44,410 nt of DNA, taken from the NCBI GenBank assembly GCA_019100305.1, contig JAHRHW010000001.1, forward strand, positions 1 through 44,410, read 5' to 3'. Of the stretch, positions 895-29,731 are shown piece after piece. The notes under the pieces are model-generated. The model was not told the origin of the DNA. It did no database searches and was given only the letters and a program-made list of their open reading frames with translations. Source of the DNA: Candidatus Thiodiazotropha taylori (GTDB taxonomy: Bacteria > Pseudomonadota > Gammaproteobacteria > Chromatiales > Chromatiaceae). Position 1 is the stretch's first letter; every line of letters starts with the position of its first letter. Position numbers and translations under genes: made by a program.

Positions 895-908
895 GTATTG
901 CGTACACC

Positions 909-5263: not shown

Positions 5264-6015
5264 CCCAGAATCGATTCTATTGGGTCTCTGCCCACTTGAC
5301 TGACAAGGGTAAAGTGCGCAGCATCAATGAAGATGCCTGCCTCGATCGGGCTGACCTGGGAATCTGGGTGGTTGCCGATGGCATGGGTGGGCATGCTGCC
5401 GGGGATCTGGCCTCAGGCATGATTGTGAGTGAATTGAAATCGCTCGACCCAGGTAACTCAATTGGTGAGCTTGCCGGAAACGTTGAACAAAAACTGCATC
5501 AGGTCAATCAACACCTGCTGTTGGAATCCCATCAACGTGGCGGTGAGATCATCGGCTCAACGGTGGTTACCCTGCTTGCCTATGATGGATATTGCATCTA
5601 TCAATGGGCTGGAGACAGCCGTATCTATCTCTATCGTCGCGGAAATCTGAAACAACTCAGCCGCGATCACAGCCAGATTGAGGAGATGATCGAACAGGGT
5701 CTGGTCACCTCCGATCAAGCCGAGCAATCATCCATCGCCAACTACATCACCCGGGCAGTTGGTGCTGCAGAGGTTCTGGAGTTGGATGCGGAGATGGTGG
5801 AGCCCTGTGACGGTGACCTGTTTTTACTCTGCAGTGATGGCCTGAACAAAGAGGTCAAGGATGCTGAAATCGCTGAAATTCTAGGGCGTTACAGCTTTCA
5901 GGATGCAATACAACAACTCATTAGCCTGGCCATGGACAGAGGCGCCAGAGATAATGTCACACTGGTGATGGTGCAAGCGAAAGCCACACAAAACCTGCAG
6001 CCCGAAGAAATCTAA
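5260..6015 (+). CDS. pppA: PP2C-family Ser/Thr phosphatase PppA
   Basis: Motifs RSINEDA, VADGMGGHAAG, WAGDSRIY, LLCSDGL and ARDNVT. True start is probably ATG 5260 (ATGA overlap with the tagF stop), not 5083. Confidence 0.92.
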   Translation: MTQNRFYWVSAHLTDKGKVRSINEDACLDRADLGIWVVADGMGGHAAGDLASGMIVSELKSLDPGNSIGELAGNVEQKLHQVNQHLLLESHQRGGEIIGSTVVTLLAYDGYCIYQWAGDSRIYLYRRGNLKQLSRDHSQIEEMIEQGLVTSDQAEQSSIANYITRAVGAAEVLELDAEMVEPCDGDLFLLCSDGLNKEVKDAEIAEILGRYSFQDAIQQLISLAMDRGARDNVTLVMVQAKATQNLQPEEI

Positions 6016-6080
6016 TCTGATATATTGATCGACATGCCAATCCAGCTAATTGCTACATGCAGCCAAAAGGAATCTAAGAA

Positions 6081-7442
6081 GTGAAAGAGGTAACCAGCTT
6101 TCGGGATTTCTGCAAATTCCTATTCATTGTCATTTCTGTGCTGGCTCTGAGCGCCTGTCAGTTGACCGGGCCTAAAAAAGAGGCTCAACCGGTAGCCATG
6201 GAGCCGGAACCAATAGAAGAGACTATTCCTCCACCAACCGATTCACTGACGCCCAATCAGCGGGTACGAAAAGCGCTACAGCATCTGCAGCAGGGTGACT
6301 ATGAGAATGCCCGCAACCAGTTGAACTGGGCCTTGATGGATGATCCCGATCATAAGCGTGCCAACCACCTGCTGGAGCAGATGGATGCTGACCCGATTGA
6401 GTATCTTGGACTTAAAAACTTCTATTACGATGTGCAGCCGGGTGATTCGCTATCCCTGATTGCCAAGAATTTTCTCGATGACCCTTATAAATTCGTGATT
6501 CTTGCCAGATACAACGACCTGGACAATCCCAGCAAGCTGGCTCCGGGTCAACGTATTCGTGTGCCGGGGATTATGCGGGAAAAGCCGAAAATCAAGGCAA
6601 AACCCAAAACCAAGCGGAAGCCTGATGTGGTATTGACTGAGGAACCCGTAAAGAGTGAAGCCAAAACCGACACCTCTACCGACCCGGCTGCCACATCTTC
6701 TCAGGCAGATGAGCCAGTGCCGTCAACAGCGACTGAACCGGTTACAGAAGTCGACCCACCTTCAGAGACAGCGCTGGCAGTGGAGCCAGAACCTGAACTC
6801 GAACAGTTGGAAGAGACAGCGAACACACTTCCTGAGAGCCCCCCAAACAGTGATGACACACTGAGCTCTGCCCGGCAGTTGCATGCTGAAAAAGACCTGC
6901 CAGCAGCCATCTATCTGCTGGAGAGTGAAAACAGCAGTAACCCAGAAGCTTCAGAGGTACGTACCCAGCTGGCAAGTTACTACACCGAGTATGCAAACCA
7001 ATTGATCAGAGAGGATGACTTGGAAAGTGCCCGGCAGACCTTGGAAAAGCTGATCATCCTTGATGCCTCCGACAACAACGCTATCAATCAACTCATCTAT
7101 GTGGAAGACAAACTTGAAGCCCGCAAGCTGCTGCAAAAAGGAGAGAATGAAGAGCGTGGTGGACAGTATCAAACTGCCTATCGCACTTATGGCCAGGTAT
7201 TGACCTATGATCCTGACAATCAATCCGCACAAGAGTCTCAAATCAGAGTGAGAAATCAACTGACTGACAGTTACCATCGTCAGGCCATGCAGCTGTTTCG
7301 CCGACAGGAACTGGATGAAGCCATCGGATTCTGGAATAAGATCCTTGAACTTGATCCAAATCATTCGCTCGCCCCGGGTTACAAAGCACGCGCCCTGGAG
7401 ATGAAGCAACAGCTTCAAAAGATAGACTCGAAGCCCAATTGA
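6081..7442 (+). CDS. Lipoprotein with TPR, LysM, Pro/Glu/Thr-rich linker and C-terminal TPR repeats
   Basis: Lipobox LALSA-C. LysM segment YDVQPGDSLSLIA...NDLDNPSKLAPGQRIRVP. TPR-like ends VLTYDPDNQSA and ILELDPNHSLA. Confidence 0.85.
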   Translation: MKEVTSFRDFCKFLFIVISVLALSACQLTGPKKEAQPVAMEPEPIEETIPPPTDSLTPNQRVRKALQHLQQGDYENARNQLNWALMDDPDHKRANHLLEQMDADPIEYLGLKNFYYDVQPGDSLSLIAKNFLDDPYKFVILARYNDLDNPSKLAPGQRIRVPGIMREKPKIKAKPKTKRKPDVVLTEEPVKSEAKTDTSTDPAATSSQADEPVPSTATEPVTEVDPPSETALAVEPEPELEQLEETANTLPESPPNSDDTLSSARQLHAEKDLPAAIYLLESENSSNPEASEVRTQLASYYTEYANQLIREDDLESARQTLEKLIILDASDNNAINQLIYVEDKLEARKLLQKGENEERGGQYQTAYRTYGQVLTYDPDNQSAQESQIRVRNQLTDSYHRQAMQLFRRQELDEAIGFWNKILELDPNHSLAPGYKARALEMKQQLQKIDSKPN

Positions 7443-8111
7443 CAGGCTGTATAGAAGTGGCTGGCTGGAGGCATTAATTCAGTCAGTAACTGAAAATGTC
7501 ATATCAGCTACAGCTATTGCATCAGCAGAAGTACTGATATCCAGGCTGAGTTAACTATGCTTCATTAGCCGCTGTAGCAGACAAAAATGGTGCTCACTTT
7601 GCTGTATGCAGTCATTTTCCAAATCATCATTTTAAATATCGCCCGCTGTTAACCCCTACAACCTGCACCGATTCTTTTCAGCAGTAACAAGTGCTCATGA
7701 ATTACCTGACACTTTGTCACACTATTTCTAACTTAATCCTATGCTTATCACGCTCTAAACCGGGATGAGTTGATTCAATACTGCACGCATGAATTTAATT
7801 CCTATTTTGGTTGGTTATGTTTAAAACAAACCAGTTTTAATCACATTTTTTCAAGGCGATGAGCTATGCTTATGTTCTATTGACTTTACTCAGTTGACTT
7901 CTTCAATAGAGCATGAATAATACGCTGCAAGTATTGTGATCTATTGGATAAATTTCTCAATTTCACAATATTTTTTGGAATTGTTTGCGGGGTAATCTCG
8001 AACGGAATCATGCTGAAAGCAGAGTTTTTGCTTATCGTTATGCAATCTTTGATGGAACCATCAGTTCGCAGCAATCGATTTGATATTGATATCTAGCAAA
8101 ATGGACTTAAT

Positions 8112-8846
8112 GTGCTTGAAGCACTTTCGACAACAAATATAATAATTGCCGCAATCATCATCTGTTCTGCCTATCTGGTTAGAGGTATTTCAGGTTTTGG
8201 CTCAGGTCTGATTGCTATACCTTTACTTGCATTGATGCTGCCTTTGTCAATCGCAGTACCTTTGATTGTGTTACTCGATTACATTGCATCTGCAAGCCAC
8301 GGTGTAAAGCATCGTGAAGCGATTTGCTGGCGGGATATTTTGCCACTGCTCCCCTTTTCGATCATCGGGGTTTTGATGGCTCTCTATCTGTTCAACTCAG
8401 TCGATGCTCAGGTACTTCGTTATGGCTTGGGAATCTTTCTGCTATTGTTTGCTGTCTATTCACTTTTCAGCATAACACCCAACGCTGCACCCTCTCTGCT
8501 ATGGGCGGCCCCAGGTGGAACTCTGGGAGGTTTCATTGGCACACTTTTCGGTACCGGCGGTCCGTTTTATGTCCTCTATCTGAAACTCAGAGGACTCAAC
8601 AAAACAGAATTTCGGGCGACATTTGCGACCATTTTTCTGATCGATGGCATTGGACGCTTGATTGGTTACATGGCAACCGGATTCTTTGACCTTGCGTTAC
8701 TCAAAGTCGTTGCGGTTGCGATTCCTCTGATGGCCATCGGTATGTACATTGGTGGTCAAATACACAGCAATCTCTCTCAGGAGACGTTTCAAAGGGGAAT
8801 CAGCATACTGCTGATTATCAGTGGAATTTCCCTGTTGTTAAAGTAG
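8112..8846 (+). CDS. TauE/SafE (TSUP) family membrane transporter
   Basis: 244 aa, almost entirely hydrophobic, with the duplicated motifs GISGFGSGLIAIPLL and GTLFGTGGPF typical of the family. Confidence 0.85.
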   Translation: MLEALSTTNIIIAAIIICSAYLVRGISGFGSGLIAIPLLALMLPLSIAVPLIVLLDYIASASHGVKHREAICWRDILPLLPFSIIGVLMALYLFNSVDAQVLRYGLGIFLLLFAVYSLFSITPNAAPSLLWAAPGGTLGGFIGTLFGTGGPFYVLYLKLRGLNKTEFRATFATIFLIDGIGRLIGYMATGFFDLALLKVVAVAIPLMAIGMYIGGQIHSNLSQETFQRGISILLIISGISLLLK

Positions 8847-8854
8847 CCTGACAA

Positions 8855-9622
8855 TTACTCAAACTGGTTAACCAAAGAGCCTATTCCGTCAATTCTTATC
8901 TCGACCGTGGCCCCCTGAGACATAGGTCCCGCACCCAACGATGTACCACAGGCAATCACATCTCCTGGATTGAGCGTCATATCCCTCGAGAGACGGCTGA
9001 CAATCTCTCTTGGGGAGAAAAACATGTCATCAACCGGATAGTTCTGATGCTCTACACCATCGACCAGTGTTCGGACAGTCAGTGAGTCAACATCGAGTCC
9101 CGTAGCAACTACCGGCCCTACAGCCCCGAAGGTGTCAAAGCTTTTTGCTCGGGTCCATTGAACAAATGACGGATCCTCTTTCATCAGACCTCTAGCGGTA
9201 ACGTCATTGACGCAGGTGTATCCAAAAATGTACTTATCAGCCTCATCTTCGTTGATATTGCTGCAACGCGCCCCGATCACTATGCCTAGCTCGCCTTCAA
9301 ATGCCACAGGTCCATGATAGGTTTCCGGTTGTCTAATTGTCTGTCCGCTCGCCAGAAATGAACCATTGGCCTTCATGAAATAGAGCGGATGGTTTGGCTG
9401 AGACCAGCCCTCTTTTGCTGCCCTTGAGCGGAAATTGTTCCACAACCCAATCATTTTCGACGGCTGAGTGGGAATTAACAGATTAATATCCGCAACCGGT
9501 AAAAATTCACCCGTCGCTTTTGACTCCTGAAACATATCCCCTTGATAAACAGCAATATGATCATTCCTTAAGGTGCCAAATCCATGCTTTCCCAAATACT
9601 CAAACCTGACCCATAGCTCCAT
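8855..9622 (-). CDS. Fumarylacetoacetate hydrolase family protein
   Basis: Motifs FEGELGIVIG, GYTCVNDVTAR, RAKSFDTFG and TLNPGDVIACGT. Confidence 0.92.
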   Translation of the reverse strand: MELWVRFEYLGKHGFGTLRNDHIAVYQGDMFQESKATGEFLPVADINLLIPTQPSKMIGLWNNFRSRAAKEGWSQPNHPLYFMKANGSFLASGQTIRQPETYHGPVAFEGELGIVIGARCSNINEDEADKYIFGYTCVNDVTARGLMKEDPSFVQWTRAKSFDTFGAVGPVVATGLDVDSLTVRTLVDGVEHQNYPVDDMFFSPREIVSRLSRDMTLNPGDVIACGTSLGAGPMSQGATVEIRIDGIGSLVNQFE

Positions 9623-9976
9623 AATCCATCTCCCTAATCAAAAAGAACAGCCCAGTATCGCCACCTTCAACAGTTACAGCTTTAAATTTCAGGCATAACA
9701 AGCTGATTTAATAGAAATAGACCTTTGTATGAAAACTCTGATCCTGACCTATCAAATGTGCCTATCCACGATCACTGATGTTGTAATTGAGTGATCGAAA
9801 TTCAAAAAAAGAATTCCGTTCCCAGATTATCAATCTTACACGGAATTTTATTCACATGTTGCTGTTTTTCAAAGCCCTTTAGCTTCAGAAGCACAGAAAT
9901 GAGTCGCTAACTCAGGCAGATGGATATGTCACTGGTTACGTTGTTACAGGAGTGTAAGTTGATTCGTAACTGAAGT

Positions 9977-10225
9977 TTGTTTGACCTTTGGCTATCAAAT
10001 ATGATGGAACAACTCTACAAAATAGCACTTACTAGTTTTGCCATAGGCACTCTGTTTCTGCCTTTGTTGCTATTTGTTAATTACCTCGAAGCCCGTTATC
10101 CGGCTACCACTCAACTCACCAGTCTGGCGTGGTACGAGATGTTCATCATTCTCATGTTGTTGGTAATTCCCTTCGGCACCTTAAAGCTCCTTCGCGTACC
10201 CTGGAACGATAAAGAACCTCAGTGA
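9977..10225 (+). CDS. Possible small two-TM membrane protein (start may be ATG 10001)
   Basis: Short ORF with two hydrophobic stretches filling an otherwise empty gap. No recognisable motif. Confidence 0.35.
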   Translation: MFDLWLSNMMEQLYKIALTSFAIGTLFLPLLLFVNYLEARYPATTQLTSLAWYEMFIILMLLVIPFGTLKLLRVPWNDKEPQ

Positions 10226-10258
10226 GCAGAAATTCTGCTCTATCCATTGCTGCTTGAT

Positions 10259-11185
10259 CTATTGGGCCTGGCGGTTTTCAAACGTATCGATCCTCAGTTG
10301 AGTCCGTTTATCATTGGGATCAAACTTTAATGCACTCTTCCAAAGTTCGATCGCATTGACCGGTTCGGAACGGACACTTCTCAATCCTAACAAATAGAGC
10401 TCCTTAGCAAACTCTTTTCGAGCAGCCAACAGCTTCTTCAGAAATTTATCATCATTGTTGAGTGACTCTTCTGCTGCAGCCAAGTGGTCCAGCGAACTGT
10501 CATAATCCGATTCTCCAAAGGAAGCACGAGCCTGAACAATCCGAACATTCACAAGCATCTCTTTGAGCTCCGTGTCACTTGGATACTTTGTAATATGTTT
10601 CTCGAGTTCTGCAATATAACCCTCAACATCATTAGCTCGGTTTTCCGCCTGTAAAATGGCCTGACGTGAATAGATATATCCCTCATCTTCTGTCTGTCGA
10701 TTCTTTTTACGAAGACTGCTCTTACGATAACGCTGGGAGAGCGCCACTTTCTGCTTCATTTTCTTATGCAGTTGCTTCCTATTGATATCACGCAATCTGT
10801 CAAAGGCAGCTCTGTAATTTGGATCGAGGGTCAGTATTTTAAAATACAACACCTCCGCACTTTGCAATTTACCTCGCGCATACTTCTTCTCGGCTATCGA
10901 CATCAATTTATCTGTTTTCTCTGCGATCAGTTTTTCCAGCCTCTTGACCTCTCTGCCCGGTTTGGTAGTGTCTACTGATACTGTACGTGCAATACGATAT
11001 TCCATCAGTGCACTGTACAGATCCCCCTTCTGCTCATGCTTGGCTGCCGATAGCATCAAACGCTTTGGATCCGAGTAACTTCCTGGATTACTACTCTTTA
11101 CCACTTGTCTGTTTGCACACCCCAGACTGGATAAAATAAACAGAGTGACAAGTAACAGCGAAAAAGTGTGCAGAAAACTGATCAC
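10259..11185 (-). CDS. TPR-repeat lipoprotein
   Basis: Lipobox LSSLG-C and TPR-like segments KILTLDPNYRAA and WKSALKFDPND. Start is 4 nt downstream of the deacetylase stop. Confidence 0.8.
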   Translation of the reverse strand: MISFLHTFSLLLVTLFILSSLGCANRQVVKSSNPGSYSDPKRLMLSAAKHEQKGDLYSALMEYRIARTVSVDTTKPGREVKRLEKLIAEKTDKLMSIAEKKYARGKLQSAEVLYFKILTLDPNYRAAFDRLRDINRKQLHKKMKQKVALSQRYRKSSLRKKNRQTEDEGYIYSRQAILQAENRANDVEGYIAELEKHITKYPSDTELKEMLVNVRIVQARASFGESDYDSSLDHLAAAEESLNNDDKFLKKLLAARKEFAKELYLLGLRSVRSEPVNAIELWKSALKFDPNDKRTQLRIDTFENRQAQ

Positions 11186-11189
11186 AACA

Positions 11190-12263
11190 TCACCGGGTCT
11201 GGAAGGTTTTCAGCTTTGCAACAAAATCGTCCATGCCCCGGTCTCCAAAGATCATGCTTCTGTTCAGTAGATAAGGATAGTTAAATGCTGCATTGGCAGT
11301 GGGCTGAACTGTCAGACCGAGCAATAGACCATTTGCCTTTAACTCTTCAATCACCTGAGGGTTAGTATCGCCAAATGGATAGGCATAGTATTTTGGTGCT
11401 TTTCCCAATGTACTTTCCAATTTACGGCTGGGTATGCGAACTTCGTCCGTGATTCTCTTGCGATACTCAGATTTACTTTCCCCAATGCCATTGAGCGCGA
11501 GATTCGAATGAGTCTTGGAGTGTGGTTGTAAACTGATCAAACCACTGGCATTCATGGCTTTCAGTTCTTTTGTTTTCAATCCGCCGTTATTCATATAATC
11601 ACTGTAGACAAACACCGTTGCAGGAAAATTGAACTTTTTCAGCAGTGGATAGGCGATTGTATAGATGGATCGATGACCATCATCTATGGTTAACACCACT
11701 GATCGCTTTGGCAAGCCACGCTCACCTTTCAAAAAACCATACAGATCCTCAAGGCGAATCACTCTGTAGTCATGCTGCTTGAGATAGGCGAGCTGCTGTT
11801 CGAACTGTTCCGCACTGACTTCCAGTCGACCGCCCTTGTTACCAAAACGGTGATAGCACAATATGGGAACTGTCTGATAACCTTCAAATTCGAAGCCTAT
11901 CGGATTGTCATTCTGCAGTGGAATAATGATCTCATTTCCAGATGCAATGGATCGAGGCTCGTTGGCATCTTCGATCAGCCAGCCGAGACTCTCATCACCA
12001 AGATAGCGACGTGCAAGCTCACTGGCATCCTCATTCCCCACCCTGAGTACGACAAATTCGCTATCCCGCGCCAGAATTTCAGTTGTGACAGGACGTGACG
12101 AACAACCCGCACCCAACAAAAAGAAGAGTGAGAGAAATAAACTGGCAATCAGTAACTTCGATGGTTGATCAGCGCTCATTGACGTCGCTGTTTGCAGTCT
12201 GCCAGATTGATTCACAGACCATGCGCCTTTAACTGTGGCCGTAGGCCGAAGAGAGAGTCTCAT
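11190..12263 (-). CDS. Polysaccharide deacetylase (CE4/NodB fold) lipoprotein with N-terminal degenerate LysM-like domain
   Basis: Motifs VPILCYHRF, VLTIDDG, HSKTH and YAYPFG. Lipobox LLGAG-C. LysM-like segment ASELARRYLGD...WLIEDAN...GNEIIIP. Alternative start ATG 12179. Confidence 0.88.
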   Translation of the reverse strand: MRLSLRPTATVKGAWSVNQSGRLQTATSMSADQPSKLLIASLFLSLFFLLGAGCSSRPVTTEILARDSEFVVLRVGNEDASELARRYLGDESLGWLIEDANEPRSIASGNEIIIPLQNDNPIGFEFEGYQTVPILCYHRFGNKGGRLEVSAEQFEQQLAYLKQHDYRVIRLEDLYGFLKGERGLPKRSVVLTIDDGHRSIYTIAYPLLKKFNFPATVFVYSDYMNNGGLKTKELKAMNASGLISLQPHSKTHSNLALNGIGESKSEYRKRITDEVRIPSRKLESTLGKAPKYYAYPFGDTNPQVIEELKANGLLLGLTVQPTANAAFNYPYLLNRSMIFGDRGMDDFVAKLKTFQTR

Positions 12264-20364: not shown

Positions 20365-20805
20365 TTATACGGCCTGGGCAAATACCCCAGACTTTTCTAA
20401 AGTTGGTATCAGGATCGTCTCTTCGCGCTGAATCCGATCTTCAATCATGTCAAAGATCTCAAATGTTTCAGCAATAAACTCATCTGAAAAGTTGAAGTCG
20501 CAGTTCTTCAACCATTTATTATGGTATCGCTCAAACTGTTTTCTAATGGGTTTTTGCCCATTCAGAAATCCCCAGGCCATGGATTTCAATTTCGGATCTT
20601 GATGCGTCAGCAGGTCAGGATAGACACCCCGATCCTGGTCTGACATATGACCTTTCATCATCTCTGCCAGATCGCAAATCATCTTATGAGTTGTCATTGC
20701 GTTTGGCCTTATACTCAACTGTTCCCTCGTCATCATAGCTCTTAGATCACTGATAATCTGCTGCATATCAGTGTGGCTACCTTTCATACTTTCCAATGTG
20801 CTCAC
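20365..20805 (-). CDS. Hemerythrin/HHE-like four-helix domain protein
   Basis: 146-aa helical protein with H...HMSDQD..VYP...RIQREE.ILIP spacing resembling HHE repeats. Strong RBS (AAGGAGG). Confidence 0.65.
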   Translation of the reverse strand: MSTLESMKGSHTDMQQIISDLRAMMTREQLSIRPNAMTTHKMICDLAEMMKGHMSDQDRGVYPDLLTHQDPKLKSMAWGFLNGQKPIRKQFERYHNKWLKNCDFNFSDEFIAETFEIFDMIEDRIQREETILIPTLEKSGVFAQAV

Positions 20806-21031: not shown

Positions 21032-21583
21032 CTAACTCCCAGGAAGCGCATAGATGGCTGCTGCGTTTCTGTGGTAGCCCTTGTAGTCCATTCCATAACC
21101 GAACACATAGCGGTCTTCGACCTCCAGCCCGACAAAATCCGCTTTGAACCCAACACCCCGATCGTGCTTCTTCTCCACCAGAACCGCACTCAACACCTGC
21201 TTTGCACCTGCGTCCTGACAAGCTTCGACAATGGCCGCAAGAGTGATGCCATGATCCAGGATGTCATCCACGATGAGGATTGTCTCGCCTGTCAGTGAGG
21301 CACTGGGGTGCCCTTTCCACTCCAGCTCTGAACCCGATGTCTCGCCCCGGTAGCGGGTTGCATGAATATAGTCATGACGAAGTGGAAAACTCAGCCTGGT
21401 CAAAAGTTGCCCAGTCGGTATCAAAGCACCATTCAGTACACACAATACCAGTGGATCCTGATCCGCGAGGCACTCACTGATCTCCAGTGCCATTCGATCC
21501 AGCGCTTGTGCGATCTGCTGACTGTTATAGATTAAGTCGGCTGTAGCCAAAACTTCAGCCGCCTGTTGTGCATTAATCGTCAT
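21032..21583 (-). CDS. hpt: Hypoxanthine-guanine phosphoribosyltransferase
   Basis: PRPP motif ILIVDDILDHGITL and RYVFGYGMDYKG. Start overlaps the nagZ 3' end. Confidence 0.92.
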   Translation of the reverse strand: MTINAQQAAEVLATADLIYNSQQIAQALDRMALEISECLADQDPLVLCVLNGALIPTGQLLTRLSFPLRHDYIHATRYRGETSGSELEWKGHPSASLTGETILIVDDILDHGITLAAIVEACQDAGAKQVLSAVLVEKKHDRGVGFKADFVGLEVEDRYVFGYGMDYKGYHRNAAAIYALPGS

Positions 21584-22631
21584 CTTCAAGCCCCAGATTG
21601 AGCGGTGTTTCCTGTGGAATTACTGACAGCTGATTGACAGCCTGTTTCCAACGTGAATCCATATGAATCTGCTGTAGAGAGCGCTGTTTTCGGCCATGCA
21701 TCCTTACCAAGCGGACATGTGCGGCTGGATCGTTGTAGGTTTTCAGGGATTCCAGAACCTGTATCGCGGCGGCACGGTTGTTACAGACCAGGATCATGTC
21801 ACATCCCGCCTCAAGTGCAAGCGCGGCCCGTTGAGCATAATTACCGGCTTCGCTGGCTGCTGCCATATCCAGATCATCACTGAAAATCACTCCCTGAAAT
21901 CCAAGCTGTTGCCTGAGCACCTGCTTTAACCAAAAGCCTGAAAAACCGGCCAGATCCTTGTCGATATGCTGATAGATGACGTGGGCGGGCATAATGGCTT
22001 CCATACCGGCATCGATCATACTTTCAAACGGACGCAGATCCTCCATCTTCAGATCCTCGAAGCGCCGCTGATCAATCGGCAGGGCCAGATGTGAATCAGC
22101 TGCCACACCACCGTGACCCGGGAAGTGCTTGCCAACCACCGCCATACCGGCTTCGTGACAACCCTGCATCCATGCGTGGGCCAGACGGGTAACCTCATCC
22201 GGATTCTCGGAAAAGGCGCGATCACCGATCACTTCACTGATCCCCAGCCCCAGATCGAGAACCGGCGCAAAACTGAAATCAACGCCGCAGGCACGCAGCT
22301 CCGAGGCCATCAACCAGCCGCCAAGCTCTGTCAGCCTGAGTCCCTGTTCCGGGTGTCTACGGTACTCCTGCCCATACCAGGCGGCCGGAGGTAGCTCTGA
22401 AAACCCCTGCCTGAAACGTTGAACCCGCCCCCCTTCATGATCCACCGCAATCAGCAGTTGGGGAGTTCTGATGCCATGAATATCTGCGCAGAGGTTACTG
22501 AGCTGCTGCATGGATTCGTAGTTCCGTGAGAACAGAATAACCCCGCCCACCGCCGGATGTTCCAATAGCTCACGCTCTTCAGGGGTCATCTCCGGGCCTT
22601 CCAGATCGATCATTACCGGCCCGAGACTCAT
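21573..22631 (-). CDS. nagZ: Beta-N-acetylglucosaminidase NagZ (GH3)
   Basis: Motifs AVDHEGGRVQRF, KHFPGHGGVAADSH and FSDDL.M. Start MSLGPVMID at 22631 has a GGGAG RBS. Confidence 0.95.
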   Translation of the reverse strand: MSLGPVMIDLEGPEMTPEERELLEHPAVGGVILFSRNYESMQQLSNLCADIHGIRTPQLLIAVDHEGGRVQRFRQGFSELPPAAWYGQEYRRHPEQGLRLTELGGWLMASELRACGVDFSFAPVLDLGLGISEVIGDRAFSENPDEVTRLAHAWMQGCHEAGMAVVGKHFPGHGGVAADSHLALPIDQRRFEDLKMEDLRPFESMIDAGMEAIMPAHVIYQHIDKDLAGFSGFWLKQVLRQQLGFQGVIFSDDLDMAAASEAGNYAQRAALALEAGCDMILVCNNRAAAIQVLESLKTYNDPAAHVRLVRMHGRKQRSLQQIHMDSRWKQAVNQLSVIPQETPLNLGLEDDD

Positions 22632-22871
22632 ACCCATTCTCCCTGTTTCAGATTGGTTTTTGTGGCACTCAGAATAGCCTTCCGAATGGCCTGTTTGGAA
22701 TTCCGAATGCTGTTTCCTGGTGCTTTTATTATCATTGAGTTTAAATACTATCTGCTTGGGCCTATCAATCAATAAGCTTGCTTATGCGGTTACCTGATCC
22801 CGGGGATTCAGGTTTAATATTTACCTCAGTATGCCGCAAACATAGATGAAGTGAAAATCAGGGTTTGAATC

Positions 22872-23267
22872 ATGCGAAATCTCTTTTTGGTCTGTCTCTT
22901 AGTGCTCATTCCCAGCCAGGTTTTATGGGCTGAGGATGAAGAAAAAGCTCCCCCCACAATCAGCTACTATCAGATCAAACCCTCTCTGGTCGCCAATCTG
23001 GCAAAGGGCGGCAAATACATCCGCTGCGATATTCAGCTGATGACCAAAGAGGAAGCTTTTCTCGAGACACTGACGCTGCATGGTCCGGCGATCCGCCACG
23101 CACTGCTGATGCTACTTTCCGAACAGGATGGGAAGACCCTGAAATCTCCCGACGGAAAAGAGGCGCTACGCAAGGCCGCACTCACTGAAGTTAAAAAAAT
23201 TCTTGAAGAAGCAACGGGTAAGGATGCCGTTGAAGCACTACTCTTCACAACTTTCTTTGTGCAATAA
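22872..23267 (+). CDS. FliL-family protein (stand-alone)
   Basis: N-terminal hydrophobic helix, YY.IKPSLVANL, GKEALRKAAL and C-terminal LLFTTFFVQ typical of FliL. Confidence 0.8.
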   Translation: MRNLFLVCLLVLIPSQVLWAEDEEKAPPTISYYQIKPSLVANLAKGGKYIRCDIQLMTKEEAFLETLTLHGPAIRHALLMLLSEQDGKTLKSPDGKEALRKAALTEVKKILEEATGKDAVEALLFTTFFVQ

Positions 23268-23320
23268 ATCGGATGGTCGCTGAACCTGCTACCTGAAAAG
23301 ACGCCTATACGGGTATTGGA

Positions 23321-24118
23321 TCACCCATGAGAGCGGTGGTCCAAGCGGTCCCTCAATCGGTCGCCGAGGATATTGAGTGACAGCACCACAAGCATAATCG
23401 CCACCCCAGGTGCCAGTACCATGTGGGGTGCCATCAACATATAGCTCGCCCCATCCCTGATCAGACTGCCCCATGAAGCATCGGGTGGCTGTATGCCCAA
23501 CCCAAGAAAGGATAACCCGGCTTCGGCGATCACCATACCCGCCATGCCGAATGTCGCTTCCACGATCAACGGCGCGGACAACAGAGGCAGTAGATGACGT
23601 AACAGGATCAGATGGCGTGGGGTTCCCAATGCGATCGCTGCGGTAACGTGGTCCCGCTGTTTCAGCGACAGTACCTGCCCTCGGGTCAAGCGGGCAAATC
23701 CTACCCAGCCCACGGCAGAGAGTGCGATAATCAGATTGTCCACTCCAGGCCCCATGACACCGGCCAGAGCAATTGCCAGGAGTATGCCCGGAAAGGCTAA
23801 AAACACATCCATAATCCTGACCAGGATAAGATCCAGCCAGCCTCCCTGATAACCAGCAAACAATCCAACCGCTGTGCCAATCAACAGGGAGAGCGTCACC
23901 ACCCCAACTGATACCAGCAGGGATACCTGGGCACCTACCCAGATCCGTTGCAGAATCGGACGCCCCAGATCGTCATAGCCCATCAAACCCTGTTCGCCCG
24001 GTGACTGAAGAATTCGCTGCAGATCGATCTGGTTGGCTGACTCCACAACCCAATCTCCGCTGATTGCCGCGACAGCCCATAGCGCCAGGATGCCAAGTGG
24101 AAACCAAAGCCTGATCAT
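23321..24118 (-). CDS. Peptide ABC transporter permease (DppC/OppC-like)
   Basis: Motifs GYDDLGR, RIMDVFLAFPGILLAI, an EAA-like loop and EAGLSFLGLG.QPP.ASWG. ATGA overlap with the upstream permease. Confidence 0.92.
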   Translation of the reverse strand: MIRLWFPLGILALWAVAAISGDWVVESANQIDLQRILQSPGEQGLMGYDDLGRPILQRIWVGAQVSLLVSVGVVTLSLLIGTAVGLFAGYQGGWLDLILVRIMDVFLAFPGILLAIALAGVMGPGVDNLIIALSAVGWVGFARLTRGQVLSLKQRDHVTAAIALGTPRHLILLRHLLPLLSAPLIVEATFGMAGMVIAEAGLSFLGLGIQPPDASWGSLIRDGASYMLMAPHMVLAPGVAIMLVVLSLNILGDRLRDRLDHRSHG

Positions 24119-25044
24119 TTGGAATTGTCCAGCCGGATACGTGGATCGATCAAGCCATACAGCAGATCGGTCAGGGTATTGACCAGCACATACATCAGGC
24201 TGATGAACAGCACGCAACCCTGTACAACGGGATAGTCGCGTTTTTGAATCGACTCGATCATCAGGGAACCGATACCGGGCCAATCGAACACTACCTCGGT
24301 AACCACCGCCCCACCCAACAGGGCACCCAGCTGCAATCCAAGCAGGGTAGCCACAGGAAGCCAGGCATTGCGCATGGCATGCCGCCAGATCACCTGAAAC
24401 TCAGCAACCCCTTTCGCTCTAGCCGTACGGACAAAATCCTCACCCAGAACCTCCAGCAAACTGCTGCGAACCATGCATGCCAGAATGGCGGCAAAACCGC
24501 TACCCAGAGTCACTGCCGGCAGAATCAGGCTGGTGAGCCCGTCCCGCCCACTGACCGGCGTCAAGCCCAGCCACAAAGAGAAACAGAGAATCAACATGGG
24601 ACCCAACCAGAAGTTGGGGATAGAGACTCCCAGCATGGAAAAACCCATGGCTCCCCAATCCCAGGCTTTTCCTCTTTCCACTGCCGCCAGAATCCCCAGC
24701 GGAACAGCGATGATCAGCGCCACAAAAAGTGCCGCAAATGCCAGCTCCAGGGTGGCTGGAATTCGCTCTGCCAGTAACTCACCCACCGCTCTCTTACTGT
24801 GTAGAGATTGACCCAGGTCGAATTGGGCCAAGCCACTGAAGTAGTTCAGCAACTGGGTATCGATCGGCTGATCCAGGCCGAGACTGGCTCGCAACGCCTG
24901 TCGGTCTGCGGGTCTTGCCGACTCCCCCAGCATCACATCCACAGGATCTCCGGGCACCAGGTGAATCAGCAGAAAGACCAGACAGGCAACACCGAACATC
25001 GAGACAAACGCAGTCACCAGTCTGGACAACAGAAAGCGCCCCAT
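24115..25044 (-). CDS. Peptide ABC transporter permease (DppB/OppB-like)
   Basis: Motifs LVPGDP, SIPNFWLG, DFVRTARAKG, EVVFDWPGIG, RDYPVVQG and DPRIR. Confidence 0.93.
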   Translation of the reverse strand: MGRFLLSRLVTAFVSMFGVACLVFLLIHLVPGDPVDVMLGESARPADRQALRASLGLDQPIDTQLLNYFSGLAQFDLGQSLHSKRAVGELLAERIPATLELAFAALFVALIIAVPLGILAAVERGKAWDWGAMGFSMLGVSIPNFWLGPMLILCFSLWLGLTPVSGRDGLTSLILPAVTLGSGFAAILACMVRSSLLEVLGEDFVRTARAKGVAEFQVIWRHAMRNAWLPVATLLGLQLGALLGGAVVTEVVFDWPGIGSLMIESIQKRDYPVVQGCVLFISLMYVLVNTLTDLLYGLIDPRIRLDNSK

Positions 25045-25538
25045 CAGTCACGGATCTCCACCAGCATGCCTGGCTCAACCCAATCAAACAGCTCGATCAG
25101 ATCCCGGTTGCGCATTCTGATGCAGCCATGGGATCTCGGCACCCCCATGGGTTCACTATCCGGAGTGCCGTGGATATAGATGTATCTTCGCAGCGTATCC
25201 ACCCGGCCACCACGATTGAAACCGGATTCTAGGCCGGACAACCAGATAATGCGGGTCAATACCCAGTCACGTTCCGGTTGTTGTTCAGCCAACATTTCAC
25301 TGTAGCGTTCGCCGCTTGGACGCCTGCCGACAAACACGGTATCAAGTGGACAGTCTGCGCCTATTTTGATCCGTACTCTGTGTTTGCCTCGTGGGGTACA
25401 ACCACTCTCCTGGGATTCACCAGGGCCGTTCAAACCGGTGGATACAGGATATGAAGCCACCATTTCACCGGACTCCAGGCAGCTTAACTCCTGGCTGGCA
25501 AGATCAATTTGCAGTTGTCGATTGCACATGGCTTCCAT
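25044..25538 (-). CDS. Signal-less YkuD (L,D-transpeptidase fold) enzyme, ElsL-like L,D-carboxypeptidase candidate
   Basis: Catalytic motif YIYIHGT...SHGCIRM with no signal peptide or accessory domain. TPRG and PERDW.L.RI.WL.GLE.GFN motifs resemble Acinetobacter ElsL/LdtK as I recall it. Confidence 0.85.
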   Translation of the reverse strand: MEAMCNRQLQIDLASQELSCLESGEMVASYPVSTGLNGPGESQESGCTPRGKHRVRIKIGADCPLDTVFVGRRPSGERYSEMLAEQQPERDWVLTRIIWLSGLESGFNRGGRVDTLRRYIYIHGTPDSEPMGVPRSHGCIRMRNRDLIELFDWVEPGMLVEIRD

Positions 25539-27042
25539 CCGGGACAGATTTAAGTTTCACTTGGGCCAAACCATCATAGTTACCGTCTGACATCAGTTTA
25601 TAGCCCTTGATACGGCTCCCCTGCACAGACAGCTGATCTTCATACCAGAGTGGAATATAGGGCAGATCCCGGTGCAGTTCAGCCGCCACCTGATGATAGA
25701 GCTCCGCCTGAGCGGAGAGACTACTCGTCTGCTCAGCGCGGTTGAGTAGTTGATCCACTGTTTTACTTGCATAACGACCACGATTTGCCCCACTCGGAGG
25801 CAAGGAGTCACTGGCAAAGATATCCCGATAGATGTCCGGCGTCCTGATACCAACCCAACTCAGACTGTAGAGCTGAAAGTTACCCTGTTTGATATCACCG
25901 AAGAAAGTCCCCCAATCGTAACTGCGCAGATCGATTTCGATTCCCACCGCTTTCAACTGGCTCTGGATCACTGTGGCAAGACGTATACGAAACGGGTCGC
26001 TGGAGGTTTTATAGGTCAGTCGCAATGGATTTCTATCGCTGTAACCCAGTTCGCCAAGCAGCGCTCTCGCTTTGTCAGGATTGTATTCATAAGGGGCCAG
26101 CTGATCAGATGCCCAATGTTCCGGTGGAAACAGGGACCCCGCCTGACGTGCCGCTCCCTGCATTACCCAATGGATGATCGCCTGTCGGTCGATGGCGTGG
26201 GCAATCGCCTGTCGAATCTGCCGTTTCCCTGTCAGTGGATCCTGAAGATTGAAACCGATATAGGTGTAGTTACTGCCTGGATGTTGTTCCACGCTCACTG
26301 TCGGTTGACGGCGTAGATAACCGATCAGTTCAGGTGAGATGTCATTTTGCAGCAGGTCGATCTCACTTCGCAGCAACTTCAATACCCTTACCGTTGGATT
26401 ATTCACGGTGAGAAGTTGAAAGATCTGCCCATCAGAGCGTCTGCGCAGATGAAGCTCTCCGGCTTGAGGCCAGTCAAGCAGGTCGAAAGCACCGCTGCCA
26501 ACGGGTTCCCGGGCAAAATCATGATCCTGCTCGATCAGTTCTGCAGGAAGGATATCCAGGGTCAGGTAGGCGGGAAAAAGTGGATCCGCACGTTTCAGGT
26601 GGAAATCGAGATGTCGCGTATCAACCTCTTCCATCGATGCAATCAATTCCAGACTCGCCTGTTTGGGCGATGCCAGGGCAGGATTGAGCACTTGTCGATA
26701 GGTTGCCACCACATCCCGGCTGGTTAATTCTCGATCGTGACTGAAATTCCCAGCATGCTGATTCAGGGTAAAGCGGTAGTGGGTTGGAGTAATCACTTGC
26801 CAGCTTGCGATACCAGGCCTCGGTCTGCTGTCAGGATCAAACTCCACAAGACGCTGATAGAGCAGTCGGTTGACCCGTTCCGATGTTGCATCGGTGGCAA
26901 AGCGGGGATCGAGATTCAGCGGCCCATTGGCCAGTCCCATGCGGATCGTCTCTCGCTCCTGATCCTGGCATCCAGTGATCAGCAGACAGCTTAGCAACAG
27001 TAGCGCAAGGAGCGCTCCTCTCGGCATCCGATCACCATTCAC
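25504..27042 (-). CDS. Peptide ABC transporter substrate-binding lipoprotein (SBP family 5)
   Basis: Lipobox LITG-C and motifs LDPRFATD, PVGSGAF, YIGFNL, RQAIAHAIDR and DLPYIPLW. Confidence 0.92.
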   Translation of the reverse strand: MNGDRMPRGALLALLLLSCLLITGCQDQERETIRMGLANGPLNLDPRFATDATSERVNRLLYQRLVEFDPDSRPRPGIASWQVITPTHYRFTLNQHAGNFSHDRELTSRDVVATYRQVLNPALASPKQASLELIASMEEVDTRHLDFHLKRADPLFPAYLTLDILPAELIEQDHDFAREPVGSGAFDLLDWPQAGELHLRRRSDGQIFQLLTVNNPTVRVLKLLRSEIDLLQNDISPELIGYLRRQPTVSVEQHPGSNYTYIGFNLQDPLTGKRQIRQAIAHAIDRQAIIHWVMQGAARQAGSLFPPEHWASDQLAPYEYNPDKARALLGELGYSDRNPLRLTYKTSSDPFRIRLATVIQSQLKAVGIEIDLRSYDWGTFFGDIKQGNFQLYSLSWVGIRTPDIYRDIFASDSLPPSGANRGRYASKTVDQLLNRAEQTSSLSAQAELYHQVAAELHRDLPYIPLWYEDQLSVQGSRIKGYKLMSDGNYDGLAQVKLKSVPDGSHVQSTTAN

Positions 27043-27499
27043 AAAATGGATGTTTCACCAGGTTGGCATTGTAGTAGCGGGTATCACCGGATACCTCCTC
27101 ACCAGCCCACTCCGGCATGACGAATGCCTCATCTTCCCGGCCCAACTCGACCTCGGCCATCACCAAGCCCTGATTGGCCCCATGAAACAGGTCCAGATCC
27201 CAGATATGTTCACCGCAGCGGACCTTGTAACGGACCTTATCGATCGCCGCCCCGCTGACCAGATGATCAAGCAGTTCCTGTGCTTCATCGAGGGGGATCG
27301 GATATTCATACTCCTGGCGACTGATGCCGACCGTACGTCCCTTGATGTTGATATTGGCCTCATCCCCGTCCACCCTGACACGTACACTGGCCTGTTCCGT
27401 GGTTGCCAGATAGCCCTGTTTAATCACCGCTTCGCTGATTACGAAATCTCTCCACTTGTCATTTACAACCAGAAACTTACGCTCTATTTCTAAAGCCAT
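27032..27499 (-). CDS. CYTH domain protein (triphosphate tunnel metalloenzyme)
   Basis: Motifs EIERKFLV, RVR, EYEY.IP, K.RY and AEVEL. Confidence 0.92.
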   Translation of the reverse strand: MALEIERKFLVVNDKWRDFVISEAVIKQGYLATTEQASVRVRVDGDEANINIKGRTVGISRQEYEYPIPLDEAQELLDHLVSGAAIDKVRYKVRCGEHIWDLDLFHGANQGLVMAEVELGREDEAFVMPEWAGEEVSGDTRYYNANLVKHPFCEW

Positions 27500-28834
27500 T
27501 TATTTAACCTTTTCAAAGAGTGCGATGGACTCCACGTGAGCAGTATGTGGAAACATATCCATGACCCCGGCACTGATCAGCCGGTAGCCATGTTCTGCAA
27601 CTAAGATACCTGCATCCCTGGCCAGTGTGCCGGGGTAGCATGAGACATAGACGATGCGTTCAACACCCAGTTTTGGCAGATGATGCAGCACCTCCTGAGC
27701 ACCGCTCCTGGGTGGGTCCAGCAGGGCTTTGTTGAATGACTCCTGCAGCCAAGGCTCGGCATCCAACTCATCATAGAGGTTTGCAGTATAGAAACTGGTG
27801 TTTTGAAGATTGTTTCGGCTGGCATTCTCCCTGGCTCTCGCTACCAGTCCTGCATCTCCTTCGACACCGGTAACCTGGGCGGCATGACGCGCCATAGGCA
27901 GAGTGAAATTTCCCAACCCACAAAACAGATCCAATACCTGGTCATCCTCCCGCAGGCCCAACAACTTCACTGCACGCTGGATCATTTGCCGGTTGATATC
28001 ACTGTTCACCTGGGTGAAATCGCTGGGCAGGAAATCCAGGGTCAGATCGAATGCCGGGAGTTGATAGCTGAGCGTCACTTCACTCTCCAGTGGACGAATG
28101 GTTTCCGGTCCACCTTCCTGGAGATAGATGGTGATTTTATGCGCAGGCGCAAAGGCCTTAAGTTTCGCCAAATCCTCATCACTGGCCGGCTCCAGCAGTC
28201 GAAAGATCAACACACAGACCTCATCCCCCATGGCCATTTCGATCTGAGGGATCTGATCTCTGATCGATAACTGGTCGATCAGCCGACTCATCTCAGGCAG
28301 CAACTCACCCACCCGGGGATGCAGGATATGGCAGCAATCGATATCTGTGATGAATGAGGATCCCCGCTCCCTGAAACCGATCAGTGTACCCCCCTTTTTG
28401 GGTACATAGCGGACACCCAGGCGGGCCTTACGGCGATAGCCCCAGTCCGTCTCACCGACCAGTGGAGGCAGTATCTGTTGTGGCTGCACTTTACCGATGT
28501 GTTGCAGGCTATCCAGCATCGATTGCTGTTTGGCCTGCACCTGCGCCTTGCTGTCCTGATGTTGCAGACTGCAACCGCCACATACACCGAACTGATTGCA
28601 CTTCGGTTCAACCCGTTCCGTGGAGGATTCAAGGACCTCTACCACCCTGCCTTCATCATACTTGCGCCAGCGTCCGGTATAGAGAAAACGGACTGTCTCT
28701 CCTGGTAAGGATCCATGCACAAAGGTGGCTTTGCCATCGATGTGAGTTACCCCTTTCGCATCATGGGTCAGGGACTCGATTTGAGCTTCGACCGGCTCTG
28801 TCGGCAACTGCTTACGCCTGCGTTTTCTTGCCAT
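27500..28834 (-). CDS. rlmD: 23S rRNA m5U1939 methyltransferase
   Basis: TRAM domain, C..FGVCGGCSLQH Fe-S motif, LDLFCGLGNF, LDPPRSGA, YVSC.P.TLARD and DMFPHTAHVE. Confidence 0.95.
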   Translation of the reverse strand: MARKRRRKQLPTEPVEAQIESLTHDAKGVTHIDGKATFVHGSLPGETVRFLYTGRWRKYDEGRVVEVLESSTERVEPKCNQFGVCGGCSLQHQDSKAQVQAKQQSMLDSLQHIGKVQPQQILPPLVGETDWGYRRKARLGVRYVPKKGGTLIGFRERGSSFITDIDCCHILHPRVGELLPEMSRLIDQLSIRDQIPQIEMAMGDEVCVLIFRLLEPASDEDLAKLKAFAPAHKITIYLQEGGPETIRPLESEVTLSYQLPAFDLTLDFLPSDFTQVNSDINRQMIQRAVKLLGLREDDQVLDLFCGLGNFTLPMARHAAQVTGVEGDAGLVARARENASRNNLQNTSFYTANLYDELDAEPWLQESFNKALLDPPRSGAQEVLHHLPKLGVERIVYVSCYPGTLARDAGILVAEHGYRLISAGVMDMFPHTAHVESIALFEKVK

Positions 28835-28837
28835 TAC

Positions 28838-29731
28838 TCAGTACGCAGGGAAAACGTCAGTAGACAGATATCGATCACCACGATCACAAATAATCGCTAC
28901 GATCACAGCATTTTCAACAGTTTGCGAAAGCTTCAACGCAGCTGCCACTGCACCGCCGGATGAGATACCGGCAAAGATACCCTCCTTTGCTGCTAAATCA
29001 CGGGTCGTCTGCTCAGCGTCCTGTTGGGAAATATCGATAATCCGGTCAACCCGGCTGGCATCATATATCTTTGGCAGATACTCCTCCGGCCAGCGACGGA
29101 TACCCGGAATACTGGCACCTTCCATAGGTTGGACGCCGACAATCTCGATCTTAGGATTTTTCGACTTGAGGAAACGTGAAGTTCCCATAATGGTTCCTGT
29201 GGTGCCCATGGCACTGACAAAATGGGTCACTTTGCCATCCGTATCCCGCCAAATCTCCGGTCCGGTACCCTCGATATGTGCCTGAGGATTATCCTGATTG
29301 GAAAACTGATCCAGGATCACCCCTTTGCCGGCGGATTCGAGCTCCCGCGCTTTATCAATTGCGGCTTCCATACTGCCCTCTTTCGGGGTCAGGATCAGCT
29401 CGGCACCATAGGCCTTCATCACGGCCCGGCGCTCAAGACTCATATGTTCCGGCATCACCAGGATCATATGATATCCCTTGATCGCTGCTGCCATGGCCAG
29501 AGCAATCCCCGTATTGCCACTGGTGGCCTCGATCAGAGTGTCTCCGGGCTGAATGCTACCCCTTGCCTCGGCAAGGCGGATCATACTCAGGGCTGGCCTG
29601 TCTTTAACCGAACCGGCAGGATTATTCCCTTCCAGTTTCACTAATACGGTATTGCCGTTATCTTCAGCAAGGCGCTGCAGCCGAACCAACGGGGTATTGC
29701 CAATAAAGTCTTCGATGGTTTTATAGTGCAT
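28838..29731 (-). CDS. cysM: Cysteine synthase B
   Basis: Motifs KLEGNNPAGSVKDR, EATSGNTG, IPGIRRWP and ICDRGDRYLS. Adjacent to rlmD. Confidence 0.95.
   Translation of the reverse strand: MHYKTIEDFIGNTPLVRLQRLAEDNGNTVLVKLEGNNPAGSVKDRPALSMIRLAEARGSIQPGDTLIEATSGNTGIALAMAAAIKGYHMILVMPEHMSLERRAVMKAYGAELILTPKEGSMEAAIDKARELESAGKGVILDQFSNQDNPQAHIEGTGPEIWRDTDGKVTHFVSAMGTTGTIMGTSRFLKSKNPKIEIVGVQPMEGASIPGIRRWPEEYLPKIYDASRVDRIIDISQQDAEQTTRDLAAKEGIFAGISSGGAVAAALKLSQTVENAVIVAIICDRGDRYLSTDVFPAY

Follow-up and report, generated by a model that had tools for sequence, protein, structure and literature searches.

A predicted ATPase-less import module for sugar-linked muropeptides, encoded with an ElsL-like protein in Candidatus Thiodiazotropha taylori

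Gammaproteobacteria are assumed to recycle their cell wall via AmpG. Two described ATP-binding cassette (ABC) systems also handle wall fragments. YejBEF-YepA of Agrobacterium tumefaciens is a proposed route for sugar-linked muropeptides, with YepA described as limited to Alphaproteobacteria (PMC9790009), and Escherichia coli MppA holds murein tripeptide via Asp417, which anchors the amine, together with Arg402, Arg411, and Lys20 (PMC3173086). Among the enzymes of recycling, the ElsL class has been delimited by a single YkuD domain, a length of 105 to 200 residues, and the absence of a signal, transmembrane segment, or peptidoglycan-binding domain (Dai et al., PMC8649774). Here we analyze a 44,410-nucleotide (nt) stretch of Candidatus Thiodiazotropha taylori (assembly GCA_019100305.1, JAHRHW010000001.1; the window), which corresponds to contig C105 in a draft genome assembly of 4.2 Mb (525 contigs; completeness rated at 100%). 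It contains a family-5 solute-binding protein (SBP) gene, an ElsL-like YkuD gene, and two permease genes that overlap one another, with nagZ close by. On the sequence evidence described below, this module would take up sugar-linked muropeptides as an ABC importer, probably driven by a shared ATPase, and would supplement AmpG here and replace it in about half of the genomes that carry the SBP; we consider this reading fairly likely to be correct. The genes of the proposed system are as follows.

25504..27027, minus strand: family-5 solute-binding protein, probable lipoprotein, 507 residues from an ATG (a GTG at 27042 would give 512 residues); PF00496, 208.8 bits.
25044..25529, minus strand: ElsL-like YkuD protein, predicted cytoplasmic L,D-carboxypeptidase, 161 residues (an ATG at 25538 would give 164 residues); PF03734.
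24115..25044, minus strand: permease B, Opp/Dpp type, 309 residues; PF00528 and PF19300, with an intact EAA loop.
23321..24118, minus strand: permease C, 265 residues; PF00528, with an ATGA overlap with the permease B gene.
21573..22631 (or from a start at 22637), minus strand: nagZ, beta-N-acetylhexosaminidase; PRK05337, 470 bits against a cut-off of 207.

The overlaps between SBP and YkuD (26 nt, or 35 nt with the alternative start), YkuD and permease B (1 nt), and permease B and permease C (4 nt) agree with a preliminary description of this DNA, which had reported that the four genes, including a signal-less YkuD enzyme, overlap one another. That description had also spoken of an ABC importer operon. 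The SBP and the permeases of such an operon are present; a complete operon is not, as a family scan found no ABC ATPase gene within the cluster or the window, a gap that had been overlooked.

To place the module among related bacteria, a single draw of 240 scored genomes of Gammaproteobacteria (at least 90% completeness, about 198 families) was searched; G243 was not scored, and the unpublished genome G063 contributes nothing beyond a single SBP-negative count. The SBP was found in 66 genomes, always as a single copy and at E≤1e-127, and no match fell between 1e-60 and 1e-127. A matching permease B clade was present in 66 genomes, 65 of them in common with the SBP, even where the genes are unlinked (a 43% permease B match in G098 was judged to be another permease and discarded). 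With AmpG presence scored at E≤1e-60, AmpG was missing from 32 of the 66 carriers and from 18 of the 174 non-carriers, which bears out the anti-correlation with ampG that had been suggested. When each family was represented by one genome, AmpG was missing from 23 of 51 carriers versus 17 of 142 others (Fisher p 3e-6), and two controls, ElsL (p 1.0) and the ATPase (p 0.32), had no association with AmpG. When the 50 AmpG-less genomes were searched again at E≤1e-5, three gave matches, one weak in a carrier and two that were fragments in non-carriers; four carriers scored as AmpG-positive did so at only 1e-68 to 1e-81. One genome of the same genus (G007, 98% complete) had no SBP match, and the SBP of G009 (L037) was in two pieces.

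AmpG is above cut-off in the genome studied here (522.7 bits), where AmpD and Mpl were also found and LdcA and AnmK gave no match. Replacement of AmpG in this genome is thereby ruled out. The earlier proposal that the transporter replaces or supplements AmpG therefore stands here as a supplement only, and replacement elsewhere fits the 32 carriers without AmpG.

These AmpG-less carriers keep the downstream enzymes: Mpl is retained in 32 of 32 and AmpD in 31 of 32, versus 6 and 9, respectively, of the 18 genomes that have neither AmpG nor the SBP. Seen from the other side, 38 of the 50 AmpG-less genomes have Mpl, and the module accounts for 33 of these (32 with the SBP and 1 with the permeases and nagZ); 2 have AmpG fragments, and 3 are unexplained. 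AmpD acts in the cytoplasm on peptides linked to anhydro-N-acetylmuramic acid (anhMurNAc) (PMC9790009, PMC10622912). That carriers without AmpG keep this enzyme suggests that the cargo is sugar-linked. The same data bear on an unlikely alternative, in which a wall-recycling importer takes up a different fragment, either the sugar part only (N-acetylglucosamine [GlcNAc]-anhMurNAc or denuded glycan) or the free murein tri- or tetrapeptide. Linkage to ElsL and nagZ would be equal for such an importer, and the sugar version gains from distant relatives that adjoin GH3, GHL10, and SLT genes and never ElsL. A sugar-only importer, however, leaves the retention of Mpl, AmpD, and ElsL in AmpG-less carriers unexplained.

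The YkuD protein was identified as ElsL-like in the preliminary description, and this assignment holds. NF040925 (ElsL) was its best NCBIfam model at 209.6 bits against a cut-off of 270, the next L,D-transpeptidase model giving 23 bits; because none of the 240 genomes reaches 270, this cut-off is not informative beyond the model's own group. The N terminus has no hydrophobic stretch (best 11-residue hydropathy, 0.94; best 19-residue hydropathy, 0.6), and the length of 161 residues and the sole domain, PF03734, are those of the ElsL class. A catalytic His123/Cys139 motif is present (numbering of the 164-residue form), and the ElsL counterpart of the cysteine is Cys138. An orthologue from Sedimenticola thiotaurini is included in Data Set S3 of PMC8649774. 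An ElsL-like protein occurs in 66 of 66 carriers versus 116 of 174 non-carriers, and it nearly excludes LdcA: both were found in 2 of the 240 genomes, ElsL only in 180, LdcA only in 27, and neither in 31, so that LdcA is present in 2 of 182 genomes with ElsL versus 27 of 58 without it. Given the model match, the agreement with the class definition, and this near exclusion, the YkuD protein is likely to be a recycling L,D-carboxypeptidase, with a predicted location in the cytoplasm.

The SBP shares 96% identity with its counterpart in a Ca. Thiodiazotropha metagenome-assembled genome. Its N terminus is hydrophobic (best 11-residue hydropathy, 3.15); in the family alignment Cys20 is invariant (50 of 50 members) and the surrounding sequence is lipobox-like in 43 of 50. 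On the strength of the invariant cysteine, the protein is probably a lipoprotein. Its scores lie below every NCBIfam equivalog cut-off, including those for DppA (129 versus 1005 bits), OppA (91 versus 947), GsiB (105 versus 594), and NikA (88 versus 600). An AlphaFold2 model (predicted local distance difference test score, 93.9) has a predicted fold that agrees with DppA/OppA structures; the Foldseek matches in the PDB, led by Helicobacter pylori DppA and NikZ, were all 19 to 25% identical, and the ESM Atlas returned generic family-5 clusters only. In a tree, the SBP and its kin form their own branch (Shimodaira-Hasegawa-like approximate likelihood ratio test support, 99), separate from E. coli MppA, OppA, DppA, YejA, and GsiB.

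The alignment was then read at the positions that hold ligands in characterized relatives. The column of MppA Asp417 contains Ile, Val, or Leu in 50 of 50 family members, and the columns of Arg402, Arg411, and Lys20 contain Ile, Ser, and mostly Phe or Tyr, respectively. Because the amine-holding Asp of OppA and DppA is absent, the pocket speaks against both ordinary peptides and the free murein peptide as ligands, including the free-peptide version of the alternative above, which needs that residue; an acylated N terminus, as in N-acetylmuramic acid (MurNAc)-peptides, would fit, short of proof. Eight residues (Arg42, Asp46, Lys340, Trp372, Trp391, Asn415, Arg416, and Trp461) are largely kept across 131 distant representatives. 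Their conservation suggests one specific ligand class, with their placement in the pocket predicted from the alignment only. No fusion to a wall enzyme was present in 10 longer representatives scanned, one of which has a CAAX-protease domain, and a search of longer proteins for SBP fusions gave none at E≤1e-80, which is weak evidence.

Import of nickel or a metallophore, for which NikZ proteins among the top structure and profile matches might speak, is very improbable. Permease B scores above the Opp2B model cut-off (360.7 versus 350 bits), and Arg344 of NikZ, which binds a carboxylate or chelator, aligns with the conserved Arg347 of the SBP. The nickel site of NikZ, however, is formed by His26 and the HH-prong (10.1101/2022.10.03.510666), and the SBP family has no His at the aligned columns, with an HH pair within residues 470 to 495 in 1 of 50 rows. 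NikA models are far under their cut-off, and no nickel enzymes (hydrogenase or urease families) were found among the 45 recurrent neighbor clusters scanned. The SBP thus lacks the anchor residues for generic peptides and for nickel; binding of generic peptides or metals would have counted against the preliminary description. Orthology to MppA, DppA, YejA, or NikZ was excluded by the model scores, the pocket columns, the tree branch, and the missing nickel site.

The arrangement of the genes is conserved well outside this genome. Around 80 SBP loci from named genomes, which include many close relatives, ElsL was present in 62, permease B in 49, and nagZ in 42. The 65 class-wide SBP loci contained ElsL in 51 (within 300 nt in 49), permeases B and C in 41, and nagZ in 34; with ElsL in 51 of 65, the arrangement is far beyond chance. 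Where the permeases have moved elsewhere, their loci were fetched for 19 of the 24 carriers concerned and for G101, and nagZ was present in 15 of these 20. Permease C has nagZ close by in 48 of 65 carriers, so the linkage to nagZ noted earlier is conserved. The gap between the two is at most 150 nt at 38 of the 85 loci examined in other genomes, and for this reason nagZ is probably part of the operon in most lineages. Two related carriers have an MltF-type lytic transglycosylase gene (SBP_bac_3 and SLT domains) adjoining the ElsL-like gene (L137:9686-11074 and L141:7929-9293).

The module lacks its own motor at nearly every locus examined. A peptide-type ATPase gene was found in the cluster in 0 of 65 class-wide loci and 0 of 20 relocated-permease loci, where four ATPase matches at 24 to 32% in the class-wide loci were taken as other ABC ATPases. 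The exceptions are a 53% match about 7.5 kb upstream (L110) and an opposite-strand gene after nagZ (L317). Such an ATPase is nevertheless encoded somewhere in all 66 carriers, versus 127 of 174 non-carriers. The sole oligo_HPY-bearing ATPase of the present genome is a fused 542-residue protein that ends a fabI-linked peptide operon on contig C463 (L177:1423-7683), which has an SBP and permeases of its own. Each of the five carriers inspected for this, four of them single-contig genomes, has two family-5 SBPs, two permease B genes, and one fused ATPase located in the other operon, and two family-5 SBPs are likewise present in this genome. The ATPase gene directly follows another permease C gene in all 20 loci fetched and stands beside fabI in 15. 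The SBP of the fabI-linked operon varies between genomes, being YejA-like, of a 740-residue type, or of a 622-residue type. The permeases of the module are closest to E. coli GsiC and GsiD (43%; permease C is 43% identical to GsiD), the ATPase is 49% identical to GsiA, and identity to YejB/YejE is 28%. Taken together, the gene counts make an ATPase shared from the other operon the simplest reading, and it is probably correct. Two genomes with a distant form of the module (G271 and G278; L290 and L292) have free-standing DppD/DppF-like ATPase pairs with no nearby permease or SBP match, which are candidate dedicated ATPases.

The missing ATPase gene would also suit a sensor or facilitator for wall fragments, in which the SBP and permeases do not act as an active importer. 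The lack of an in-cluster ATPase across both sets of loci is what such a unit would look like. Against it, the coupling (EAA) loop of permease B is intact and closely similar to that of the other operon's permease, every carrier has a peptide-type ATPase, and two distant carriers have the free-standing pair. There is also precedent in Borrelia Opp, where two permease pairs, OppB1C1 and OppB2C2, use one OppDF ATPase pair (PMC5736914). We regard a sensor or facilitator as highly doubtful.

If the module is an importer of sugar-linked muropeptides, recycling would proceed as follows. Lytic transglycosylases would release GlcNAc-anhMurNAc-peptides to the periplasm, and the SBP would bind these fragments via its conserved Arg, Lys, and Trp residues and not via a free N-terminal amine. 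Permeases B and C would import them, powered by the fused ATPase of the fabI-linked operon on C463. As predicted from their families, NagZ would remove GlcNAc, the ElsL-like enzyme would trim the tetrapeptide to the tripeptide, AmpD would free the peptide, and Mpl would re-ligate it.

The SBP family extends to proteins labeled Manganitrophaceae, Deltaproteobacteria, and Calditrichota. Within the phylum of a Nitrospirota-titled record, 13 of 81 genomes carry the SBP; nine are distant members without AmpG and four are gamma-like members with AmpG (43 of 68 among the others), and few lineages are involved. The latter four genomes (L272 to L275) have a gamma-type SBP-permease set, about 50% identical and nested among gamma sequences, with AmpG present and no elsL or nagZ, a possible case of transfer. 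A metagenome set of distant relatives (34 to 44% identity) contributed 80 loci in 24 groups at 70% identity. A GH3 gene with the NagZ motif directly follows permease C in five loci of three groups and is nearby in a fourth group. A fifth group has a GHL10 hydrolase gene between the SBP and permease B genes in 16 loci, 6 of which have an SLT gene downstream; we take the E. coli wall hydrolase DigH to belong to GHL10. ElsL was found in 0 of the 80 metagenome loci. More tentatively, and with somewhat less than even confidence, we propose that these ATPase-less modules form an ancient cross-phylum family which, next to AmpG and YejBEF-YepA, constitutes a third major route for bringing in sugar-linked peptidoglycan fragments. 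The family would be the ancestral importer for recycling in Gammaproteobacteria, would use the ATPase of whichever peptide operon occupies the fabI locus, and would let many lineages lose AmpG.

Several observations weigh against the muropeptide importer. AmpG is kept in 34 of the 66 carriers, this genome among them, and the SBP of AmpG-positive genomes has no sign of relaxed selection (p 0.31). Three genomes (G072, G148, and G205) have Mpl but neither AmpG nor the module. Mapped on the SBP tree, AmpG state requires 14 changes versus a shuffled mean of 22.2, and none of 300 shuffles was as low; because AmpG state clusters in this way, the Fisher p-values are overstated, yet the pattern is not a single event. 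None of the contacts that MppA makes with D-Glu and meso-diaminopimelate (Arg402, Arg411, and Lys20) is kept, which leaves the pocket without a positive match to any known site for murein. Permease B passes, if narrowly, the cut-off of a nickel-permease model, and the case for ATPase sharing is one of gene counts. AnmK is missing from the draft despite the presence of NagZ, AmpD, Mpl, and AmpG. Neither ElsL nor nagZ was found in the loci of the 13 other-phylum carriers, and 19 of the 24 distant groups, many on short contigs, have no wall-enzyme neighbor. The 65 class-wide loci also conserve CYTH (36), rlmD (25), hpt (23), mtnP (23), and cysM (19), and ElsL lies near nagZ in 12 of 19 SBP-negative loci without the three transporter genes, from genomes chosen among the top ElsL scores. 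The gene block is thus old, part of the linkage is inherited order, and linkage alone is no proof of function. The AnmK gap may mean that the usual kinase does not recycle the anhydro-sugar, or that the gene is unassembled. The three genomes with Mpl also keep AmpD and ElsL, and one (G205) is single-contig; they possibly have yet another uptake route.

This inherited order is the basis of the alternative that an importer of an unrelated small molecule (generic peptides, glutathione-like compounds, or sulfur compounds) sits in the block by descent. The other genes kept in the block (cysM, rlmD, CYTH, hpt, and mtnP), the occurrence of ElsL and nagZ together without a transporter, the proximity of the permeases and the ATPase to GsiC/GsiD and GsiA, and the 13 other-phylum loci without wall genes all fit it. 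It does not predict that carriers should be depleted of AmpG, a depletion that is absent for ElsL and the ATPase, or that NagZ-type genes should stand right after permease C in distant groups. The SBP itself scores far from GsiB and DppA and lacks the DppA/OppA amine anchor. We think an unrelated solute improbable. The core reading of the preliminary description, a muropeptide importer, is supported in these computed checks by linkage, AmpG depletion, Mpl and AmpD retention, the signal-less ElsL-like protein with its near exclusion of LdcA, and the SBP pocket.

Two further features flank the core genes in the window.

22872..23267, plus strand: FliL-family gene, outside the system; PF03748, 83.5 bits.
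27032..29731, minus strand: cysM, rlmD, and CYTH, upstream genes not needed for the proposed function, assigned by family matches and gene spacing.

The order on the minus strand is cysM, rlmD, CYTH, SBP, YkuD, permease B, and permease C; the plus-strand FliL gene comes next, and nagZ and hpt, again on the minus strand, come after it. The upstream gaps from cysM through rlmD and CYTH to the SBP gene are 3, 0, and 4 nt, and on these gaps the operon probably starts at cysM, with the three upstream genes on one transcript with the four overlapping genes. The FliL gene lies 53 nt from permease C and 234 nt from the nagZ start. As described earlier, nagZ shares the strand of the cluster and is separated from it by a single gene; that this gene is read from the opposite strand had been missed. 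A reading in which nagZ is co-transcribed here was rejected because of it, and nagZ is probably on a transcript separate from permease C. The fliL gene is present in 22 of the 80 related loci and gave no match in the 65 class-wide loci; an opposite-strand fliL between permease C and nagZ recurs outside the genus (L232, L233, L235, L064, L092, and L096). A promoter and terminator scan of the cluster gave fewer sites than shuffled sequences. RNA contigs about 95% identical span the cluster in four metatranscriptome runs from two studies, with strand, level, and single-transcript status not readable from contigs.

Elsewhere in the window, a hemerythrin-domain gene (20365-20805, minus strand) lies between hpt and a peroxiredoxin gene. 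It is covered by many short, very-high-depth RNA contigs in two runs, although expression cannot be ranked from contigs; in Ca. T. endolucinida, the tabulated highly expressed genes include one with a hemerythrin domain (PMC13137333). Type VI secretion structural genes (DotU/OmpA, IcmF, TagF, and PP2C) and a TPR-LysM gene occupy positions 58-7442 (plus strand), and positions 6001-12000 have a lower G+C fraction (0.45 to 0.47 versus about 0.52).

A symbiosis-specific role was rejected. Titles of carrier genomes include Methylophilaceae, Ca. Methylopumilus, Thioalkalicoccus, Halochromatium, and Thiomargarita, and with free-living names among the lineages, the earlier idea that the system serves to limit release of immunogenic fragments in a host-associated bacterium is unsupported as its reason. 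For lucinid symbionts, the module would provide a second, possibly high-affinity recapture route, with no host-related role indicated. More broadly, AmpG is missing from 50 of 240 sampled genomes, and the missing uptake step of AmpG-less Gammaproteobacteria is now directly testable. If the proposal is true, the SBP family has a new way of holding muropeptides, one that makes none of the MppA contacts; ATPase sharing between peptide-type importers is widespread; and the generic "peptide/nickel" annotation on at least 4,179 database proteins would be corrected.

The module probably imports fragments that come from the wall of the cell itself, and as such an importer it is likely to be undescribed. 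No description of it was found in the literature searched, closed-access papers excepted, or in the accessible part of a review on muropeptide transporters from 2024 (PMC11509177). The cargo proposed for it, and the enzymes that would act next (NagZ, AmpD, Mpl, and an L,D-carboxypeptidase), are those of AmpG, which differs in being a single major facilitator superfamily protein and is separately present in this genome. ElsL of Acinetobacter baumannii likewise has a single YkuD domain of about 160 residues, no signal peptide, and a matching catalytic Cys, and there too LdcA was not found; the accessible text of that study does not mention an ABC-transporter link for ElsL (PMC8649774). As with OppDF in Borrelia and with MsmX/MsmK, ATPases that sugar importers are known to share (PMC7658222), the genome has more permease pairs than ATPases. 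Here the ATPase is predicted to come from an operon whose SBP differs in type between genomes.

The two ABC systems for wall fragments are closest in design. MppA-OppBCDF of E. coli also uses a family-5 SBP for wall fragments, works beside AmpG, and shares transporter parts (PMC3173086, PMC10622912). MppA, however, is described as taking free peptides only, its four contacts are not kept in this SBP, and identity is about 20%; MppA is an OppA paralogue, whereas the present SBP is on a branch separate from both. YejBEF-YepA is, like this module, a proposed family-5 SBP ABC route for sugar-linked muropeptides in place of AmpG. It is reported mostly where AmpG is missing and sometimes beside it, with parts in common with a general peptide transporter (PMC9790009). 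The present SBP is separate from E. coli YejA on the tree, in a comparison that did not include YepA itself. YepA is a YejA-type orphan that uses the permeases and ATPase of another transporter, whereas this module comes with permeases of its own, would share the ATPase alone, and has elsL and nagZ encoded beside it.

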